Positions 35,465-43,536 of a DNA stretch of 64,000 nucleotides are shown here, piece after piece (within the stretch, counting starts at the first letter, position 1; each line of letters starts with the position of its first letter). The notes beneath the pieces were generated by a model. The model was given only the letters and a program-made list of their open reading frames with translations. It was not told where the DNA came from and did not search any database. Both the position numbers and the translations under genes were made by a program. Origin of the DNA: an uncultured Poribacteria bacterium (GTDB lineage Bacteria; Poribacteria; WGA-4E; WGA-3G); assembly GCA_958296135.2 (NCBI GenBank), contig CATQHZ020000001.1:2464001-2528000 (forward strand). The letters run 5' to 3'.

Positions 35465-35582
35465 GTAGGCGAGCCCTCCCGGTCTCGATGGCTTGTAGGA
35501 GAAACCTCCCGCGTCTCGATGGCCTTGTAGGAGAGCCCTCCCGGTCTCGATGGCTTGTAGGAGAAATCTCCCGCGTCTCGAT
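35465..35582. repeat. Tandem array of four 30-32 bp GTAG REP units
   Basis: Units like gtaggagagccctcccggtctcgatggctt start at 35465, 35495, 35527 and 35557. Confidence 0.9.
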
Positions 35583-35645: not shown

Positions 35646-36470
35646 ATGACACCGAAACAACGATATCTATTTGACGTAACCGGCTACCTCCACTTAGAAA
35701 ACGTCATTACCGGCGATGCCTTAGCCGAGGCAACCGAAGCGGTGGATAGATATATCACGACACCACCCGATCAACTGCCACCGGGATTTGAAGTGAAGGG
35801 GCTACATCAGCACGGGTTCGCCTTTGACAAATCGCTGGAGGGCTTAACCATGCATGCCGCGACCTGGCCGATTATTAAGGAATTCACGGCGAATCAACCG
35901 CGGTTCGCGCGCGGCTCACTGAAACACGATAAGCACGCCCTGTGGGAACCAGGCGAACACGCACGGGTAAATCCGGGCGGATTGCACTGCGCACGCGATG
36001 ACTACGGATGGTATAGCACCCGCTACGAGGTAGACAATGGGCGCATCTATTGCGACAACTTCGTCTGCTTCACCTATTTCACCGACGTGCAACCGGGCGA
36101 CGGCGGGCTTATCGTGATCCCCGGTTCGCATAAAAGCGAGTTCACCCGGCCCGAAACTTTGCTCACGCTTGATGAAGAGGACGGCATCGATCCTGTCGAT
36201 AACCCGGTTTTCACCAACATCACGCCGAAGGCAGGGGATATTGTGATTATTTCAGAACTGCTCACGCACGGCGTGCTGCGATGGAAGCCGAAGGACAGAG
36301 ACCGGCGGTTCCTCGTGCTGCGTTATTATCCGCAATACGCTGGCAGACACAACCTCCCGCAACCCATTCTGGACCGGCTTTCGCCAGAGACGTTGGAATT
36401 AGTTGAATCCGCGCCGTATGGGCATATCAAGGAGATTGTGAAAAGCGATGAGGTGACGTTGACGGTGTAA
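35646..36470 (+). CDS. PhyH-family Fe/2-oxoglutarate oxygenase (HxA variant)
   Basis: QRYLFDVTGY, IPGSHK, ELLTHG. Confidence 0.82.
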   Translation: MTPKQRYLFDVTGYLHLENVITGDALAEATEAVDRYITTPPDQLPPGFEVKGLHQHGFAFDKSLEGLTMHAATWPIIKEFTANQPRFARGSLKHDKHALWEPGEHARVNPGGLHCARDDYGWYSTRYEVDNGRIYCDNFVCFTYFTDVQPGDGGLIVIPGSHKSEFTRPETLLTLDEEDGIDPVDNPVFTNITPKAGDIVIISELLTHGVLRWKPKDRDRRFLVLRYYPQYAGRHNLPQPILDRLSPETLELVESAPYGHIKEIVKSDEVTLTV

Positions 36471-36507
36471 GGTGTATGCGCGGACCGCCCCGCGCACACC
36501 TTTTCAT
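36469..36507. repeat. Palindromic element (second copy at 38397-38435)
   Basis: aaggtgtatgcgcggRccgcYccgcgcacaccttttcat. Confidence 0.75.
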
Positions 36508-36579
36508 CTACCGCCGCCCCGGCACAGAGACTTGTGCGGGAGTGCATCTTGTATCGCGAATACAACAGTTAATAGGGTA

Positions 36580-37629
36580 TTACTCCTCGCGCTTCAACTC
36601 GCCCCACTGTGCAGGAAACTGGCCCGCAGCAGAAACTGGTAGATACAGCGGCACCCAATCCGGCGAAAACTCTCTATAAGGCGTATCGGTGAGCTGCACA
36701 ATCTTGCCACTCGCACGATGATACCGATAAATATCAAAATTCTGAATCGGTAACTGGTCTAACAACCTATCTTCCGCCGCAACGAAAAGAATCTGTGTGC
36801 CCCCTGCCGCCCAACACGCATCACTGACTAGCCATGTCTCTGGAATCTTCAGAACGTTTGGATGTCTGCCGTGCTTGTCCACCACAATGAGTTTATTGGA
36901 GACGCGCAGCGGTTTCGCCGGATCGAACTGATATTCAATTTCAGCATACATCAAGTGTTGCCCATCCGGTGACCAGCACTGTGTGTAACGCGAAATCAGA
37001 TGTTCGCCAACAAGATGCGGCTGGGGGCCTTTGAGAAAAGGCCGCGGGCGGTTCCCTTCAATATCAACGATGTAGATATGGCGGCCGTTTGCACCGACAT
37101 GTTGATAAGCGATATGATGCCCATCCGGTGACCAATTCGGCGCGGAGGAGAACCCTGCTGCCCGCGCCGTTTTCGTGAGTTGTCTCAGCTCCCCACTTGC
37201 AACCTCCAGAATGTAAATCTCGAAATTGCCACCGCGGTTGCTTGTAAAGGCAATGTGTCGCCCATCGGGGGCCCAGGTGGGAGACCCGTCCAACTTTGGA
37301 TGGTGCGTGAGGCGCCGTTCATTGCTGCCATCAGCATCCATGAGGAAGATGTCAAATTGTTGGCCTTGTGCAGAGCGTAAGTCGCGCTCAAAAACGATGC
37401 GGCTGCCATCCGGAGACCAACGGGGGAGATACTCCCTCAGCGGCGTGTTGGTAAGTGGTGTGACAGTGCTGCCATCATCATTCATCACGTAGATGTCGCA
37501 GTTGCCATCGCGCGTGGAGTAGAAGACAATCGCGGCGAAGGCATGCGCCGCAGGAAGCAGCATGAAAACGAGCACGAGGCACGCCGCTGCACAGCCGGAT
37601 GCTGTCCTGTCTCTGTAAGTTAACATCAC
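36580..37629 (-). CDS. Secreted TolB-like (PD40) beta-propeller with C-terminal VSAAGQFPAQWGELK tail
   Basis: Signal peptide; repeated WSPDG motifs. Confidence 0.88.
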   Translation of the reverse strand: MMLTYRDRTASGCAAACLVLVFMLLPAAHAFAAIVFYSTRDGNCDIYVMNDDGSTVTPLTNTPLREYLPRWSPDGSRIVFERDLRSAQGQQFDIFLMDADGSNERRLTHHPKLDGSPTWAPDGRHIAFTSNRGGNFEIYILEVASGELRQLTKTARAAGFSSAPNWSPDGHHIAYQHVGANGRHIYIVDIEGNRPRPFLKGPQPHLVGEHLISRYTQCWSPDGQHLMYAEIEYQFDPAKPLRVSNKLIVVDKHGRHPNVLKIPETWLVSDACWAAGGTQILFVAAEDRLLDQLPIQNFDIYRYHRASGKIVQLTDTPYREFSPDWVPLYLPVSAAGQFPAQWGELKREE

Positions 37630-37651
37630 AATTTTCCTCCTGACTTAAGAG

Positions 37652-37684
37652 GCTGTCTAGGGAGGGGCGGCCCCCCTAGACAGC
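37652..37684. terminator. Stable hairpin between cargo and TolB gene (module C)
   Basis: gctgtctagggagg-ggcgg-cccccctagacagc. Confidence 0.55.
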
Positions 37685-37688
37685 GGTT

Positions 37689-37956
37689 TTAGTCTCGGCG
37701 GATCATAAATTCCCAGGTATCGTGCACCTCAACGGCAAACACCTCGCGATCATGAAACCGGAGCGCGGTATACGCGTCAATGAGATATCCCCCCGGGTCG
37801 AGCCCGCGACAGCTTGCGCCTTGCAAACCATCAAGATAGAGCGATAGGGGTGGCAAACAGACTCACCAAAACCAGCAAACCGATTCCCGCAAGGCACACT
37901 GTCCATGCGCCGCTTCTCGTCCCCGTGCGCGGGGAATTCAACAATGTCCTAAACAT
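37689..37956 (-). pseudogene. Internally deleted homologue of the 42181-42687 secreted protein
   Basis: Similar signal peptide (MFRT..PRTGT..GAWTV), then out-of-frame LDPGGYLIDAYT matching LDPGDEFTLSAYT. Confidence 0.75.
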
Positions 37957-38112
37957 CTTTCTCCTCCTTATGAGAAAGGGCAGAAGGTGATACCCCATTT
38001 CAGATATCCAAACCACTTGGACTTTCAAGGCACCATACCTCCCACGCGCGCTTAACTCTAATTATACCCTCCGAGGCATAAAAATTAAGGCCCTTTGCCA
38101 CTTTTTTTCACA
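37957..38112 (-). promoter_or_regulatory. Conserved promoter plus structured 5' leader, copy C
   Basis: AAAAAAGTG-N9-CTTAAT-N17-TATAAT, then leader with TCCAAG-TGG-TTTGGA hairpin and AGGAGG RBS. Confidence 0.8.
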
Positions 38113-38300
38113 ATATTCGCGGTTTTTCCTCGAAAAAAGCGCAAATCGGGCAAAATCTGATAGAAAAGTTGAACTTCTCCGGAAATTCTTCCGAAAAATC
38201 ATCGCATTCCTGAAAGGCGCGTACAGAAACTCGCGTAGACTGGGAAGCGGGCAGCCGCCGCGCCAACAAGCACTCCAGCTGCCCGGTATATCTTTACGCC

Positions 38301-38389
38301 TCAGTCCTGAAACGGAGACAACTGCGCCTTTAATATCCCCAACACCTCATGGTAGATTTGGGTCACGCGCGGCGCAGAGATATCCAACT
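38301..38389 (-). pseudogene. 3' remnant (region 4.2) of the sigma factor gene
   Basis: 89-bp near-identical copy (2 mismatches) of 39900-39988. Confidence 0.85.
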
Positions 38390-38433
38390 CCTTGGAAGGT
38401 GTATGCGCGGGCCGCTCCGCGCACACCTTTTCA

Positions 38434-39075
38434 TCAGTGAGAAAATGCCCTCGCACGCGAGGCGGCTGCCTTATCAGCCTGTGCACTCTTAAGAGATTTG
38501 AGCGTCTCTTCATGGGGCCACAGGGAGTAAGTTGCCTCATAGAGGGCTATCTCTTCGTCAAGAGTGATGACCTCCCCCAATTGCAATTTCAGACTTATGT
38601 CCACATTCGTGTGCACTGCCGGGATATCGCCAAACTGCTTGATGAGTTGTGCGCGACGAGCCTCTGCCCGCTCATACGGATCGGCAATCTCAAACCACAC
38701 TTTTGGCGGTGGGCCTTCTGCCTCTTCGGATTCGTGTGAGTGGATTTGAGGCCACGGCTCCACTTCATGGGTATGGGAGTGCTGTGTATCGTCTCGCCAA
38801 TCAACGTCAACATCAGCATCGTCCTCATGAGTGTGCGGATGCACGGAGGTATCAGCAGCTGCAGCCGCCCCTTCCGCCACTCCCGTCTCTTTGGAGGACT
38901 CTTCCGCGTCCTCCACGTCCAGAGGTTTGGAACGCGCAGACTCATTCTGCTGTTCAACCGGCTCTGGCACTTGAGGCAGGCTCTTATCAAAATCCTTTTT
39001 CGCCACCTCAAAGTAAATCTGAAATCCGGCTATCAGCAGCACGAGGACGATGGCCGGTAAAATGAGGTTACGCAT
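38434..39075 (-). CDS. Membrane-anchored acidic, His-rich hypothetical protein
   Basis: N-terminal TM; HPHTH and HSHTH motifs; GAAGGAG RBS. Confidence 0.75.
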   Translation of the reverse strand: MRNLILPAIVLVLLIAGFQIYFEVAKKDFDKSLPQVPEPVEQQNESARSKPLDVEDAEESSKETGVAEGAAAAADTSVHPHTHEDDADVDVDWRDDTQHSHTHEVEPWPQIHSHESEEAEGPPPKVWFEIADPYERAEARRAQLIKQFGDIPAVHTNVDISLKLQLGEVITLDEEIALYEATYSLWPHEETLKSLKSAQADKAAASRARAFSH

Positions 39076-39114
39076 TTTTTGACTCCTTCTCAAGATTGTG
39101 CCCAGTAGCAGAGA

Positions 39115-39155
39115 GCAGTGGGCCCTGGTTGTCCAGGGCCCACTTGCCTACACTT
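39115..39155. repeat. GC-rich hairpin, duplicated at 39292-39333
   Basis: gcagtgggccct...gggccc(ac)ttgcctacactt in both copies. Confidence 0.7.
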
Positions 39156-39344
39156 TTAAGACCAAATTAATTTGCTGGTTTGAGATGTCCAGCCCTCAAC
39201 CTAGGCGAGAATTGGAAGTCTCGCACTACAGGGTGAGAGCAACGCGCAGCTCACACATTAATTTGGTATCAGGTTGTGTCCAATAGCGGAGGCAGTGGGC
39301 CCTCCGTTTGCCAAGGGGCCCTTGCCTACACTTACGCGCCGAAA

Positions 39345-39638
39345 CTAACTGTCGCAGCTGTCACAATCGCCTGCAACGGTTTCTCGGATCGACTGATAGT
39401 CCAGTCTGCGCGTAACATCATGAACAACCGGATGCGCGCTTCCCGTTTTGTCATCCGGCGTGCTGGTCGAAGTCCAGCGGCGGAAAAACGAGACGCACTC
39501 GGTCCCACTCGCAGTTGTACATGTGTAACTCCGAGAGTGCAGTACAACTTCGTAGGGATTGGACTCGGATGGACTGCTGAAAATAGCCAGCATGGCAAAA
39601 GCCACCAGCAGCCCTAGCGTCAAAACTCGGATTCTCAT
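39345..39638 (-). CDS. Small secreted Cys-containing protein (97 aa)
   Basis: Signal peptide MRIRVLTLGLLVAFAMLAIFSSPSES; C..C and CDSC. Confidence 0.7.
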   Translation of the reverse strand: MRIRVLTLGLLVAFAMLAIFSSPSESNPYEVVLHSRSYTCTTASGTECVSFFRRWTSTSTPDDKTGSAHPVVHDVTRRLDYQSIRETVAGDCDSCDS

Positions 39639-39830
39639 TTTTCTTCTCCGCAACAGTTCCTTCAAGGAGTATTCTATAGATTCTCCCCAAAGGGAAGGGT
39701 GGAGGTTAATTCCCCATCTCGGATATCCAAACCGCTTGGACTTTCGAGGCACCATACCTCCCACGCGCGCTTAACTCCAATTATACCCTCCGAGGCATAA
39801 AAATTAAGGCCCTTTTTCACTTTTTTCACA
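39639..39830 (-). promoter_or_regulatory. Conserved promoter plus structured 5' leader, copy B
   Basis: Same promoter boxes and leader core as copies A and C, with a different 3' part. Confidence 0.8.
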
Positions 39831-39899
39831 ATAGGTGCGTTTTTTCACGAAAAAACGCATATCGGGCAAAAAATGGAAGAAACCTGCCCGGCACCCACC

Positions 39900-40721
39900 T
39901 CACTCCTGAAACGGAGACAACTGCGCCTTTAATCTCCCCAACACCTCATGGTAGATTTGGGTCACGCGCGGCGCAGAGATATCCAACTGAGCTGCAATCT
40001 CTGTCCCTTTCACCGCTTCAATCGTTTTTGAGACCACTATCCTTTGCTGCCGCTCGGTAAGCGACGACAGTCCCTCCCGAACCTGCTGCCTCACTTCCGC
40101 ACGAACCACATCCGCTTCTACGTCCACAGACGCATCTGCAACGAAGTCACCAACAGACATGTCGCTGTCTTCATCCCCAACCGGTGCCTCCAGCGAAATC
40201 GTTCCTTCCCGGAACAGCAGAATTTCTTCTATTTGTTTGACGGTTAACTCCACGGCTTCGGCGACTTCGGCGTGCGTCGGTTCGCGCAACAGCGTCTGAC
40301 ACAGCGTCGCCCAAGCGGCGGAGACTTTGCCACACTGCCGGAGATGACCGGGAAGCGCGGTAAATCCAGAGTCGCGGCGAACCGCCACCTGAATCGCCTT
40401 CTCAATGCCGCGCGTTGCATAGGTGCTGAGTTTACACCCCTTCCGGTAATCGAATTTATCCACCGCCTTTACCAATCCCATATTTCCCTCTTGAATCAGG
40501 TCTTCAAGGGGCACCCCGTTGTTTTGGTATTTCCGTGCGATAGAAATGACCAGGCGCAAGTTCGCCTCGACCAGCTCATCGCGTGCGTCGGCATCGCCGG
40601 CTTCCATTTGCTTGGCTAATGCTACTTCCTCCTCCCGCGATAACGGGCCGTGCGTCTCGGCACACTGCAGACAGCACGTTAACGCATCCGGCGCACTGAG
40701 TGTAGGAGTGAACTGTTTCAT
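39900..40721 (-). CDS. Atypical sigma-70 family sigma factor (RpoD-like region 2, FliA-like region 4)
   Basis: NLRLVISIARKY, DLIQEGNMGL, STYATRGIEKAI, SAPRVTQI. Confidence 0.9.
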   Translation of the reverse strand: MKQFTPTLSAPDALTCCLQCAETHGPLSREEEVALAKQMEAGDADARDELVEANLRLVISIARKYQNNGVPLEDLIQEGNMGLVKAVDKFDYRKGCKLSTYATRGIEKAIQVAVRRDSGFTALPGHLRQCGKVSAAWATLCQTLLREPTHAEVAEAVELTVKQIEEILLFREGTISLEAPVGDEDSDMSVGDFVADASVDVEADVVRAEVRQQVREGLSSLTERQQRIVVSKTIEAVKGTEIAAQLDISAPRVTQIYHEVLGRLKAQLSPFQE

Positions 40722-40780
40722 TGTGAAACCTCCTTGCGTAAAAATTGGAACCGTTCAACGGTATTTCAATCTCTATATAT

Positions 40781-40827
40781 AGTATAGGAATTAAATGGCA
40801 AAAGTTTAGGGTAAAATGCACTTTTTT
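40781..40827 (-). promoter_or_regulatory. Promoter of the sigma gene, same architecture as the module promoters
   Basis: AAAAAAGTG-N9-CTAAAC-N17-TATACT. Confidence 0.6.
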
Positions 40828-41002
40828 TGCGGTTTTTTTTACTTAATTCTCAAAAAAACGCAAAATGGCGATGTTCACGCGTGCATGTTACCGGTGCCAC
40901 TCTTAATAGGTGCGCATTTTTCGGAAATGTCAACTTTTTCTGCAAAGAAGTAAACCGTAACAAAAAATCCGCGGACGTGGAAAACACGCCCGCGGCAGAA
41001 AC

Positions 41003-42115
41003 CTAGTGACGCAGGCGAGGGCCGTCTTGGGACTCCCGCACGCGCGAAAAAGGTGCATCCGGTGCATTCTTCGCCTTTATCCGCCCCCACTGCGTCGTTA
41101 ATTTACCTGCCGAGGAGACCGACAAAGGATGCGATGTCCAATCGGCCGCCCAGTCATCAGCCGGGTGCTGCGTCAGGTTGGTTATCTGCCGGGTGGACAA
41201 CTCATAGCGATAAATCTCATAGTTGCCGCCCGCCCGATTCACCAACCCATTTTCTATCCCATCGAAAAGCACCGCTGTGCCATCCGCCGCCCAGCAGACC
41301 CCGCCTACCCACCATGTCGCAGGAACCGCCAACACCCGCGGATGGGAACCATCCCGCCGACGGATAATCAGACGATTGGCGACCCGCTTAAACATGTCGG
41401 GACCGACATCAAACTCCCTCTCATTATACAGCAGGTAGTCACCATCCGGAGACCACCGCGGGTGATGACTCATGAAAGTCTTCCCTAGAATCGCCGGGAC
41501 TAATGCCTTGACAAGGGGCCGGTTGCGCTTTCCGGTAGCATCCATCAGATAGATGTGCCGCCCTTGCCCCGGCAGCGACATTTGATAAGCAATCTGCCGC
41601 CCATCCGGAGACCAGGCGGGACCCGTGGCGTAACCGCCGACCGCGGCACTGTCTGTCAGTTGTCTCACGGCACCGGTGGCGATATCCATCACGTGAATTT
41701 CAAAGGCACCGCTTCGATCACTCAGAAAAGCAAGGCTGCGTCCATCGGGAGCCCAACCACCATTCCCATCTAATGCCGGGTGTTGTGTCAGGTTTCGCTG
41801 TCTTGTCCCATCTGCATTCATAAGGAATACGTCTATATCTTGCCCCTGTTCTGGGACCTCCGAATTGAGATCCGCAGAAAAAATAATCTGTGCGCCATCC
41901 GGAGACCAGCGCGGGCGACTCTTATAGAGCAAATCGCTCGTGATCCGGCGGACATAGCTGCCCTCATCGTCCATGACGTAGATGTCGCTTTCATAGATGT
42001 CAATGCTGCCCTCGCGATCCGAGATGAAGACAATGTCGGCCGAGGCAACCGCCGCCATCAACACAAAGAGCAGACTGACCACTATCAGTTCAGATGAAAG
42101 GTTGTGAATGCGCAT
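41003..42115 (-). CDS. Secreted TolB-like (PD40) beta-propeller with VSSAGKLTTQWGRIK tail
   Basis: Signal peptide; WSPDG repeats; paralogue of 36580-37629. Confidence 0.88.
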   Translation of the reverse strand: MRIHNLSSELIVVSLLFVLMAAVASADIVFISDREGSIDIYESDIYVMDDEGSYVRRITSDLLYKSRPRWSPDGAQIIFSADLNSEVPEQGQDIDVFLMNADGTRQRNLTQHPALDGNGGWAPDGRSLAFLSDRSGAFEIHVMDIATGAVRQLTDSAAVGGYATGPAWSPDGRQIAYQMSLPGQGRHIYLMDATGKRNRPLVKALVPAILGKTFMSHHPRWSPDGDYLLYNEREFDVGPDMFKRVANRLIIRRRDGSHPRVLAVPATWWVGGVCWAADGTAVLFDGIENGLVNRAGGNYEIYRYELSTRQITNLTQHPADDWAADWTSHPLSVSSAGKLTTQWGRIKAKNAPDAPFSRVRESQDGPRLRH

Positions 42116-42180
42116 GGTGATTCTCCTCCCAAGAAGAAAGCGTGTGCTGCGCGCCACCTGACGCGCAGCACCTGGGACGG

Positions 42181-42687
42181 TTATTTCTGATAACGACGCT
42201 TAATTTCCACTTTCCAGCCATCGCGCGCCCCTCGCGCCCGAATCGCAACGCGGGTATACGCTGACAGCGTAAACTCATCGCCTGGGTCTAACTCAGGGAT
42301 GTCGTTGAGATCGAGGCGCCGCCCGTAAATCGGCTCCATATATACCGCACCCGCAGGAAGCCGGCGGTCCGATCTGACTTTCTTGTTCTCGGTGCCCGTT
42401 TCCAGGATGGCGTGCTGGAACTCGTAGTCAAACCGGGCAGGGAACCCACTCTCGTTGGATACCGTGAGATAATGCGAACTCCGCGTATACGGCCGGCTGT
42501 AGCCAATGCCCCACAACTCCACAGAACCGTAGACACCGCCTACCCATCGGGAATCCGATATGGCTGACGCATCGGGTGGCACAGTGAAGAGACACATCAG
42601 TGCCAGCAAGCCGATTACCGATAGACGCACTGTCCATGCGCCGCGCTTAGTCCCCGTGCGAGGGAAACTGAAAAATGTCCTAAACAT
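42181..42687 (-). CDS. Secreted hypothetical protein (168 aa), module A cargo
   Basis: Long signal peptide ending ASA; AGGAGG RBS. Confidence 0.75.
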   Translation of the reverse strand: MFRTFFSFPRTGTKRGAWTVRLSVIGLLALMCLFTVPPDASAISDSRWVGGVYGSVELWGIGYSRPYTRSSHYLTVSNESGFPARFDYEFQHAILETGTENKKVRSDRRLPAGAVYMEPIYGRRLDLNDIPELDPGDEFTLSAYTRVAIRARGARDGWKVEIKRRYQK

Positions 42688-42842
42688 CTTTCTCCTCCTT
42701 TGAGGAAGCACGGAAGGTGATACCCCTCTCTTGGATATCCAAACCGCTTGGACTTTTGAGGAACCAGACCTCCCACCTTCGCTTAACTCTAATTATACCC
42801 TCGGCGGCCAGAAAATTAAGGCCCTTTTTCACTTTTTTCACG
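42688..42842 (-). promoter_or_regulatory. Conserved promoter plus structured 5' leader, copy A
   Basis: AAAAAAGTG-N9-CTTAAT-N17-TATAAT; leader hairpin core; TTGGATATCCAA palindrome. Confidence 0.8.
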
Positions 42843-42948
42843 AAAAAAACGCCATTCGGGCAAAATGTTGGGAAAAATGGGAAATTGCAAAAAAAAGCCG
42901 CCGTTGTGAAAACACAACAGCGGCGAAAAGAAAATAAAGATTCCGGCA

Positions 42949-43536
42949 TTAACCAGATGCCTTATCAGAAAACTCAACGAAACGATAGATGTGCCGCAAA
43001 GGCAACTCGCAGTCAATCGAAACAACACGTAGCACATCCGTGAGTTCCCGCAATTCCTCAAAAATCCACTTTTCCCCCTGGCGAAGATAGTGCTCAACGC
43101 GAACATCGTCTTGTGAAATCAAGATGTATTCCTGCACAGATTCCACCCGCCGATAGTAGGCGAATTTCTCACCCCGGTCTCTCGATTCTGTTGATGGCGA
43201 AAGCACCTCTACCAAAACAAGCGGATTGATGAGGGTATCAAAGACATCATCCTCAAAACGTGGCTCATCACAGACAACGGTGACATCCGGATAAAGGTAA
43301 GACGTTACGGGGCTCGTTCCCACGCGCATATCGCTACCGTAAACCCGGCACCCCCGTTCTACCACTTGGTTGTAAATCCCATTGATAGTATTCACGGTAA
43401 TGAGATTATGCGCGTTACTTGCTCCGGGCATTTCAATAATTTCTCCATTGAAGTATTCGCTTTTAAATTCTGATTTGCGCTCAAAAGCAAGGTATTCCTC
43501 TGGCGTTAAGAGGGTTTGCACTGCAACAGATGCCAT
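42949..43536 (-). CDS. Uma2 family endonuclease
   Basis: TPEEYLAFER, YPDV, VEVLSPST..DRGEK. Confidence 0.92.
   Translation of the reverse strand: MASVAVQTLLTPEEYLAFERKSEFKSEYFNGEIIEMPGASNAHNLITVNTINGIYNQVVERGCRVYGSDMRVGTSPVTSYLYPDVTVVCDEPRFEDDVFDTLINPLVLVEVLSPSTESRDRGEKFAYYRRVESVQEYILISQDDVRVEHYLRQGEKWIFEELRELTDVLRVVSIDCELPLRHIYRFVEFSDKASG

Follow-up and report, generated by a model that had tools for sequence, protein, structure and literature searches.

We analyzed a locus of an uncultured Poribacteria bacterium (assembly GCA_958296135.2, contig CATQHZ020000001.1) within a 64,000-nucleotide stretch, hereafter the window (contig positions 2,464,001 to 2,528,000), whose numbering is used throughout. 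Around positions 36580 to 42900, three minus-strand modules (A, B, and C) repeat one promoter and leader in front of different genes, and an intact gene of the sigma-70 family lies between modules A and B. We propose that repeated segmental duplication gave rise to a genus-specific array here, with a young, divergent sigma-70 paralog among its copies, and that the locus works as a two-tier cascade: a promoter class of family level would drive the sigma gene, and the sigma factor would drive the genus-specific cassettes. For this combined reading, we consider the chances to be about even. The locus looks like a local switch for gene expression that evolved recently, and not like a system of a new kind.

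Below, G000 is this genome (5.19 Mb), G001 and G002 are its two congeners, and g5 is the sister genus. All features of the array are on the minus strand.

The repeated promoter and leader

The repeated element is a promoter plus leader of ~185 nt, found in cassette A (42688-42866), cassette B (39639-39872), and cassette C (37957-38160). Its 132-nt core repeat lies at 37976-38107, 39695-39826 (90%), and 42707-42838 (74%), and further repeat families extend upstream. The initial annotation had described a modular locus, with three modules under a common upstream element that stays conserved while the downstream content differs; repeat search, alignment, and blastn confirmed this architecture. 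When the 185-nt element was searched by blastn over the whole genome, only these three places appeared at E<1e-30. The nine remaining rows at E<=10 were matches of at most 26 nt, one of them adjoining cassette A. The threefold repetition is far beyond chance.

The order within the element is constant: A/T tracts, AAAAAAGTG, five nucleotides, GGGCCTTAA, 15 nucleotides, GGGTATAAT, a leader of ~100 nt, a Shine-Dalgarno (SD) sequence, and ATG. GGGCCTTAA and GGGTATAAT are located at 42824-42816 and 42800-42792 in cassette A, at 39812-39804 and 39788-39780 in cassette B, and at 38093-38085 and 38069-38061 in cassette C. The leader of cassette A is ~105 nt long and carries a putative SD-sequestering stem.

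GGGTATAAT is the usual strong -10 of this genome, with 45 sites on the main contig. At 27 of them, at least five of the six TTGACA bases are found at a spacer of 16-18 nt (22 perfect, 5 with 5/6), compared with a 3/6 match in the three cassettes. There, the -35 place is occupied by GGGCCTTAA, which is invariant in 6/6 copies over three species. Of its four chromosomal occurrences, only the three at the cassettes have a -10 behind them; likewise, CCT[AT]AA[CT]-N17-TATAAT has three chromosomal occurrences, all of them cassettes. Judged by its -35 region, the cassette promoter does not belong to the housekeeping type.

Interspecies divergence (K) was 0.09-0.16 for the core promoter and 0.17-0.26 for the 5' leader of intact copies. 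In the second G002 copy (G002_2), whose leader is disrupted by a repetitive extragenic palindromic (REP) element, leader values reached 0.40-0.51. For comparison, the synonymous divergence (dS) of neighboring genes was 0.27-0.61. Relative to synonymous sites, conservation of the core promoter is about fourfold higher.

For the leader, Rfam returned no match at gathering score in the whole window, and the rows at the locus were at chance level (E>=1.8), so no known RNA family was found for it. Folds of five of the six copies did no better than shuffled sequences (z-scores between -0.2 and -2.7), G002_2 (with an inserted GC hairpin) gave -4.7, and the alignment contained no covariation support. 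A short stem pairing the SD with an upstream CUUCCU was predicted in most leader copies, and we give it little weight. Thus, we treat the leader as a plain 5' untranslated region (UTR) with a possible anti-SD stem, which may damp translation.

By blastn, the element was present in 3/61 related genomes, namely G000 and both congeners (one and two copies), and in 0/58 of the others. An exact scan for the promoter core, using one genome per species over ~185,000 species, returned only the two congeners. The same exact pattern gave two matches in metagenomes, both on AT-rich, unrelated 1-kb contigs, and we read them as chance. All copies of the element sit at one syntenic locus (atpD-atpC-Uma2...PhyH) in the three species of the genus. 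An element occurring only here as a single recent duplication would have counted against the initial annotation. The element is indeed confined to one locus of one genus, yet it is constrained, present in three species, and the product of at least two duplications.

The sigma factor and the promoter of its gene

The sigma gene (39900-40721) encodes 273 aa and is intact between modules A and B, as initially annotated. All Pfam regions passed their cut-offs (PF04542, 69.6 vs. 24; PF04539, 62.4 vs. 25.3; PF04545, 29.3 vs. 24.1; PF00140, 24.7 vs. 22). With regions 1.2, 2, 3, and 4 present, the protein is a member of the sigma-70 family. Scores for the individual subfamilies stayed below cut-off: 183.1 vs. 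555 for the RpoD/SigA equivalog NF004208 (covering only 392-617 of 631 profile positions), 182.5 vs. 378.7 for the RpoS equivalog TIGR02394, and 128.5 vs. 234.35 for SigB/SigF/SigG (TIGR02980).

The description of the sigma factor as atypical and as part of the repeat architecture was borne out. We aligned it with solved SigA chains and the genome's own paralogs. In region 2, it reads RG-IEK..QV (R-G/S-I-E-K..Q-V across all three orthologs) where the others have W-W-I-R/K-Q..T/M-R. In region 4.2, the three orthologs read SAPRVTQ (S-x-P-R-V-T/A-Q) where the others have T-R-E-R-I-R-Q. The WW and RQ..T residues of region 2.3/2.4 and the R-E-R-I-R of region 4.2, conserved in groups 1 and 2, are therefore missing from this protein, whereas the genome's RpoD-like and 337-aa paralogs keep the canonical residues. 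The altered positions are presumably the contacts to the -12 base and to the -35 hexamer. On this alignment, the sigma factor has lost the residues that would read TTGACA and the -12 position.

Among 112 family genomes, orthologs of the sigma factor (83-85% identity) were found only in the three members of the genus. Matches in the remaining 109 did not exceed ~52% identity and corresponded to the ~337-aa paralog, which is also present in G000. A search of 5.8 billion proteins gave six clusters at >=82% identity and then none above 52%. In the tree, the branch of the sigma factor measured ~3-4.6 substitutions per site vs. <=0.2 for the family paralog. It grouped with a 266-aa sigma of genome G111 (support 97/96), with which it has a region-4 motif in common, and this grouping may be caused by long-branch attraction. 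The ratio of nonsynonymous to synonymous divergence (dN/dS) was 0.14-0.25, so the protein is maintained. Confined to the genus, this paralog sits on a long branch and evolves under purifying selection.

The numbers of Sigma70_r2 matches differ widely between genomes: 96-106 each in G115, G134, and G087 (all g5), 34 in G020 (g5), and 19 in G000. Many of the g5 domains lie in frames of ~1000 aa, which suggests that they are fused to large C-terminal parts.

The short sigma of G111 (266 aa; within L048:6671-11454, G111:C204) adjoins an MzaB-like ATPase gene (PADLOC, 8e-12) and a full DruA gene (9e-147), and its surroundings look like a defense island. A PhyH gene ~2 kb upstream of it is 55% identical to the window's PhyH; for positional homology, this likeness is only a hint since PhyH is a large family here. 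At our locus, a gene for a Uma2-family putative endonuclease (42949-43536, minus strand; PF05685, 7e-34) directly borders the array in all three species and matches the PADLOC defense candidate PDC-S03 (5e-26). The sigma factor itself matches the C-terminal part of MzaA (PADLOC, 101 bits; NCBIfam, 153 bits). With the nearest tree neighbor beside an MzaB-like gene, these matches could suggest an anti-phage defense locus related to MZA-type systems, which we regard as highly improbable. The MzaA match is no better than those to RpoD and RpoS and covers generic sigma domains only, and the cargo consists of exported propellers. Across the locus proteins, PADLOC retrieved nothing besides the partial MzaA and Uma2, leaving the locus outside the MZA systems, with no other Mza component or defense family in it.

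Two candidate promoters precede the sigma gene. P1 is a putative housekeeping-type promoter with TTGACA at 40928-40933 (TTGACR in three species). P2 (40781-40826) comprises AAAAAGTG..ACCCTAAAC (40812-40804), a spacer of 17 nt, and TATACT (40786-40781), and it resembles a promoter class of the sister genus. We found the pattern ACYMTWAAC-N15-19-TATA upstream of 8/27 modules that pair smallA, the small exported protein of module A, with a propeller. All eight are from g5, and shuffles averaged 0.73. Five g5 genomes contained 2-9 class sites each vs. 0-2 for a reversed-pattern control, with a tight consensus of AAAATATGACATTTACCCTWAAC-N17-TATAATTAA (ACCCTWAAC-N17-TATAAT). The strict pattern was present in 52/65 g5 genomes, 1/1 g3, 0/2 g4, and 0/1 g6; it also occurred in 7/40 g2 genomes, where the control was about equally frequent.

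Sixteen open reading frames (ORFs) downstream of class sites comprised three STAS genes, three PD40 propellers, one WD40 propeller, one sigma-54 activator, one Laminin_G_3, one DUF3108-like protein (weak), and six without a family. Five further class sites precede smallA modules. Solitary STAS genes (115-122 aa) stand behind the class promoter at three g5 loci (L091, L097, and L105), with no kinase or sigma gene adjoining them within the fetched stretches. The STAS genes of G000 use other promoters.

From 22 g5 sites, we derived a weight matrix and scanned both strands of the G000 chromosome with it (~10 million positions). P2 scored 50.7 bits, and the next best chromosomal site 12.4, making P2 the sole strong member of the class in this genome; its counterparts in the congeners reached 34.4 and 48.4 bits. 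The three cassettes scored 2.6-14.3 bits and would rank 2-19 in the chromosome scan, far below P2. They appear to align in register with the class through AAAAAGTG, CCTTAA, TTTT, the 17-nt spacer, and TATAAT-TA-AG. By these motifs, the cassette promoters would be related to the g5 class in register without being members of it. In the searched g5 genomes, no ortholog of the local sigma was found at E<=1e-40. Since the P2 class is in use there, something outside the locus probably controls the sigma gene, and the initial idea of a self-contained system is not supported.

In the cascade that we propose, a factor reading the family-level class would turn on the sigma gene, the sigma factor would use its altered region 4.2 to recognize the promoters of the cassettes, and exported envelope proteins would be expressed in coordination. 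Several points weigh against it. The link from the sigma factor to the cassettes is circumstantial and comes from sequence comparison, and the factor of the upper tier is one that we infer. Together with its GGG context, the -10 of the cassettes matches the housekeeping -10 exactly, whereas region 2.4 of the sigma factor is changed. Such an unchanged -10 would fit RpoD acting with an activator, or a UP-element-driven promoter. No gene for an anti-sigma or other conserved regulator was found in the locus, and no cassette-like motif near the short sigma of G111. Element and sigma gene co-occur in 3/3 genomes, but these form one clade, so the co-occurrence counts as a single evolutionary event. 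Finally, smallA copies decay repeatedly and propellers persist, so part of the array may drift rather than function.

The strongest alternative, which we consider possible but less likely than the cascade, is that the housekeeping sigma reads the cassettes, through an A-tract UP-like region or an activator at GGGCCTTAA, or that the family-class factor does so, and that the local sigma is itself cargo with targets elsewhere or none. The -10 favors this alternative because it is unchanged: it keeps the genome's housekeeping context GGGTATAATTA, and an altered region 2.4 would predict an altered -12 base. The invariant -35 argues the other way, being unlike both TTGACA and ACCCTWAAC. The cassettes do keep a weak similarity to the family class in the same register, and that class works where no sigma ortholog was found; yet no other site of the cassette type exists in the genome, so a general factor would target this locus alone. 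Moreover, the sigma factor is under purifying selection, and no alternative target motif was found for it.

The cascade could also have been caught at an early stage. A sigma/promoter pair might be seen here soon after its birth. A sigma gene, duplicated or acquired, would have lost the canonical residues for reading -35 and -12, while at this locus the ACCCTWAAC of an ancestral module promoter was remodelled to GGGCCTTAA, to be read by this sigma factor alone. The sigma factor would thus have been inserted as an extra tier between an older signal and the genes that this signal once controlled directly, and local duplication would have spread the promoter to further cargo. We put this forward with some reserve, as a conceivable history and not as the expected one.

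Cargo genes and history of the array

Module A continues with smallA (42181-42687), which encodes a 168-aa, exported, beta-rich protein without a Pfam, NCBIfam, or PADLOC family. A 12-bp GC-rich stem-loop (42144-42171; z=-3.9) separates it from propeller A (41003-42115), an exported PD40 (TolB-like) beta-propeller (PF07676, 4e-27), and a terminator hairpin kept in all three species follows (40969-40995). Module C holds a decayed smallA homologue (37689-37956; 82% over 114 nt), consisting of a 41-codon stub (37956-37831) and a 3' fragment weakly similar to smallA (E=0.007). Its intercistronic stem-loop (37642-37694; z=-4.7) precedes propeller C (36580-37629), also an exported PD40 protein, and the module is closed by a hairpin (36466-36508) common to the convergent PhyH gene.

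Both propellers belong to the PD40 family (PF07676 scores of 93.9 for A and 126.8 for C vs. a cut-off of 20.9). They are not TolB equivalogs: TIGR02800 gave 141.5 vs. 343.15, matching only profile positions 257-386 of 418, the propeller part. Propellers A and C are 45% identical with saturated dS, and promoters and smallA 5' ends of the two modules are 74-85% identical. Thus, old propeller paralogs stand behind similar promoters and 5' ends, and the modules are mosaics. PD40 propeller paralogs are many per genome, and dN/dS of propeller A was 0.18-0.24.

The pairing of smallA with a propeller extends beyond this locus. A large protein index contained eight smallA relatives at 76-100% identity, and a smallA profile matched in 18/112 family genomes, up to 13 times per genome. 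A PD40 propeller lies directly downstream on the same strand in 25/27 further smallA-ORF loci, and the other two reach contig ends. The small exported protein and the PD40 propeller are an old, Poribacteria-wide two-gene unit. An intergenic stem-loop (z<=-2) was found in 17/25 smallA-propeller gaps of >=30 nt, with unrelated stem sequences. In G000, the pair recurs twice (C1:707176-710723 and 4359131-4362775) as a 3.5-kb inverted duplication with 97-98% identity, in which one of the two smallA genes is intact and the other truncated.

Structure prediction was of limited use for these proteins. The AlphaFold2 model of smallA had a mean pLDDT of 38.9, too low for a fold search, and the best hits in a language-model atlas (0.76 for smallA, 0.81 for the module B protein HisB) were under the useful range. 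A predicted complex of mature smallA and mature propeller A scored 0.00, which counts neither for nor against binding.

Module B differs in content. Behind its promoter lies smallB (39345-39638), an orphan ORF of 97 codons whose N-terminus is signal-like. It belongs to no family, has no match in the 111 other family genomes (both congeners included), and is absent from the G002 counterpart of cassette B; we doubt that it is a real gene. It is followed by a locus-specific GGGCCC-stem repeat in two copies (39090-39335), and one copy also forms the 5' UTR of the HisB gene in G002. HisB (38434-39075), a membrane-anchored protein of 213 aa, combines an acidic stretch that contains His with a 'FGDIPAVH' domain at the C-terminus, and it has no known family in Pfam or NCBIfam. 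Its dN/dS was 0.43, paralogs are present in G000, and the HisB-type domain occurs twice in a 283-aa protein of G002. HisB-like paralogs were also observed within a few kb of other sigma-70 ORFs (G000:C1:4080510-4086511 and 1083503-1087799). The hairpin after HisB (38393-38435) is a 93% copy of the one closing module C, and these are the sole two copies in the genome. Next to it lies a 3'-end remnant of the sigma gene (38299-38389), 98% identical to the intact gene at 39898-39988.

Several details of the initial annotation change with these results. A sigma remnant is present between modules B and C, with a length of 91 nt instead of 89. The small secreted protein assigned to each module stands for A, is reduced to a stub and a weak fragment in C, and is doubtful in B. 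GC-rich hairpins were retrieved in A and C, and those of module B are the two copies of the GGGCCC-stem repeat. For the partner genes, the propellers of A and C are PD40 proteins and the B partner is membrane-anchored, as described; its His-rich stretch is acidic and His-containing, and the protein has no known family.

The first interpretation had been a sigma-driven system for variable secreted proteins, either host-interaction effectors or effector/immunity pairs. Exported small proteins paired with a partner gene, different cargo behind one promoter, and an organism that is a sponge symbiont would all fit, but we now find this reading quite unlikely. No toxin, immunity, or secretion-apparatus domain was found in any locus component with Pfam, NCBIfam, or PADLOC. 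The cargo of A and C, instead of being variable, is one conserved family with a steady propeller partner, and smallA evolves under purifying selection (dN/dS 0.27) with no diversification. Both partners carry signal peptides, and the decaying member is the small gene. The small ORF of module B is an orphan, and the class of P2 points to control of the sigma factor from outside the locus.

The loci of the congeners show how the array changed. The G002 locus comprises cassette A, another copy of the element joined directly to HisB, a third propeller behind a smallA 3' remnant, the sigma gene, propeller C, and the 283-aa protein with two HisB domains, which has a leader fragment upstream. In G001, the element leads straight into propeller A, and the locus also contains the sigma gene and a promoter-less leader remnant past the sigma stop codon. 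Leader and smallA remnants are thus found in both congeners. The duplicated unit of G000 included the sigma 3' end and the closing hairpin, and that of G002 included the Uma2 terminator hairpin (42897-42924 in the window, located by a terminator scan and by alignment of the six copies). Because these boundaries differ between species, the element was copied at least twice independently.

Following our proposal, an ancestral module of promoter, ~100-nt leader, small exported protein, stem-loop, and exported PD40 propeller would have been duplicated repeatedly. Its intercistronic stem-loop would probably yield more small protein than propeller. The array would grow, swap cargo (HisB-type), and decay by unequal recombination between its conserved promoter and terminator flanks.

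Recombination could also be nearly the whole story, the array being mostly the by-product of a hotspot whose copies decay without coordinated regulation. Remnants are many (the sigma 3' stub, the smallA stub of module C, and the leader and smallA fragments of the congeners), gene content is unlike in each of the three species, and REP elements fill intergenic regions genome-wide. This explanation is nevertheless unlikely: the core promoter is far more conserved than synonymous sites, and the intact genes all show dN/dS of 0.14-0.43.

The locus was tiled by contigs of four DNA runs that broke only at repeat copies and contained no alternative internal joint, and depth at the sigma remnant was ~2x in these contigs. 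The four runs containing the stretch come from one sample, probably the source of the genome, and are not independent; all are DNA-type, with no RNA run among them.

Two REP-like repeats are abundant on the main contig: GTAGGAGARMCCTCCCG... (window 35465-35582), with 220 copies, and CGGGGGCCTGTCCCCCG, with 118. Both occupy intergenic regions at the congeners' loci. Besides, contig C2 of G000 (143,886 bases) has a GC content of 36.8% vs. 54.4% for the main contig and carries a sigma-like ORF; this contig may represent a plasmid, a phage, or a binning contaminant.

Significance and relation to known systems

The initial annotation did not recognize the locus as a described system, and our searches of the print literature found no description of it. 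Within the literature on Poribacteria sigma factors, TolB, beta-propellers, and WD40 or eukaryote-like proteins, no paper dealt with the locus, the pair, or the promoter class. WD40 proteins are reported as abundant in Poribacteria (PMC3909097), and the main text of that paper does not contain the terms sigma, TolB, PD40, or propeller.

If the sigma factor reads the cassettes, the locus would show a new sigma/promoter specificity and a regulatory tier arising within one genus, with the ancestral state still visible in the sister genus. This would bear on the evolution of transcription networks and on orthogonal sigma/promoter design. Should the pair indeed be seen soon after its birth, it would be a natural orthogonal sigma/promoter pair together with a cascade arising in place. 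Regardless of the cascade, two elements are defined here in an uncultivated phylum of sponge symbionts: a conserved pair of a small orphan exported protein and a PD40 propeller, usually with a stem-loop, and a tight promoter class of non-TTGACA type, with propeller modules and STAS genes among the downstream genes that were sampled. Each offers a lead to envelope regulation in these symbionts that can be tested, and neither is a new kind of system.

Among known proteins, the propellers resemble TolB in their PD40 repeats and signal peptide. They differ from the TolB of Tol-Pal in scoring far below the equivalog cut-off over the propeller part only, in having many paralogs and no Tol-Pal neighbors, and in that a small orphan exported protein comes before them in every case. 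Regarding MzaA (~700 aa), the domains of the local sigma match by sequence in PADLOC and NCBIfam, but only to its C-terminal part (428-656 of 683), and no other Mza genes are present.

The sigma factor resembles group 2 (RpoS-like) factors, with regions 1.2, 2, 3, and 4 and its best profile matches to RpoD and RpoS (183 and 182.5 bits), and its nearest relatives are Poribacteria sigma factors of ~320-337 aa. Unlike group 2 members, it lacks WW, RQ..T, and RERIR and has a shorter N-terminus and region 4.1.

Finding a sigma gene among its own target operons is known from alternative sigma regulons, both of the general-stress SigB/SigF type and of the extracytoplasmic function (ECF) type. The SigB/F consensus is GTTTAA-N12-15-GGGTAT, and the CCTTAA-N15-GGGTAT of the cassettes resembles it. 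We rejected a SigB/F reading of the promoter: the sigma factor falls outside that subfamily (TIGR02980), its backbone is RpoD/RpoS-like, and no anti-sigma, STAS, or kinase gene is found among the locus proteins, the genome's eight STAS matches lying elsewhere and on other promoters.

As in alternative sigma regulons, a non-essential sigma-70 member adjoins operons that have a common non-housekeeping motif and that encode mainly envelope or exported proteins. The present case differs in that the sigma factor's own promoter class is not that of its presumed targets and works without the sigma factor elsewhere, and in that the presumed regulon is limited to one locus. The closest description of our finding is an alternative sigma factor with local targets, arisen via segmental duplication.

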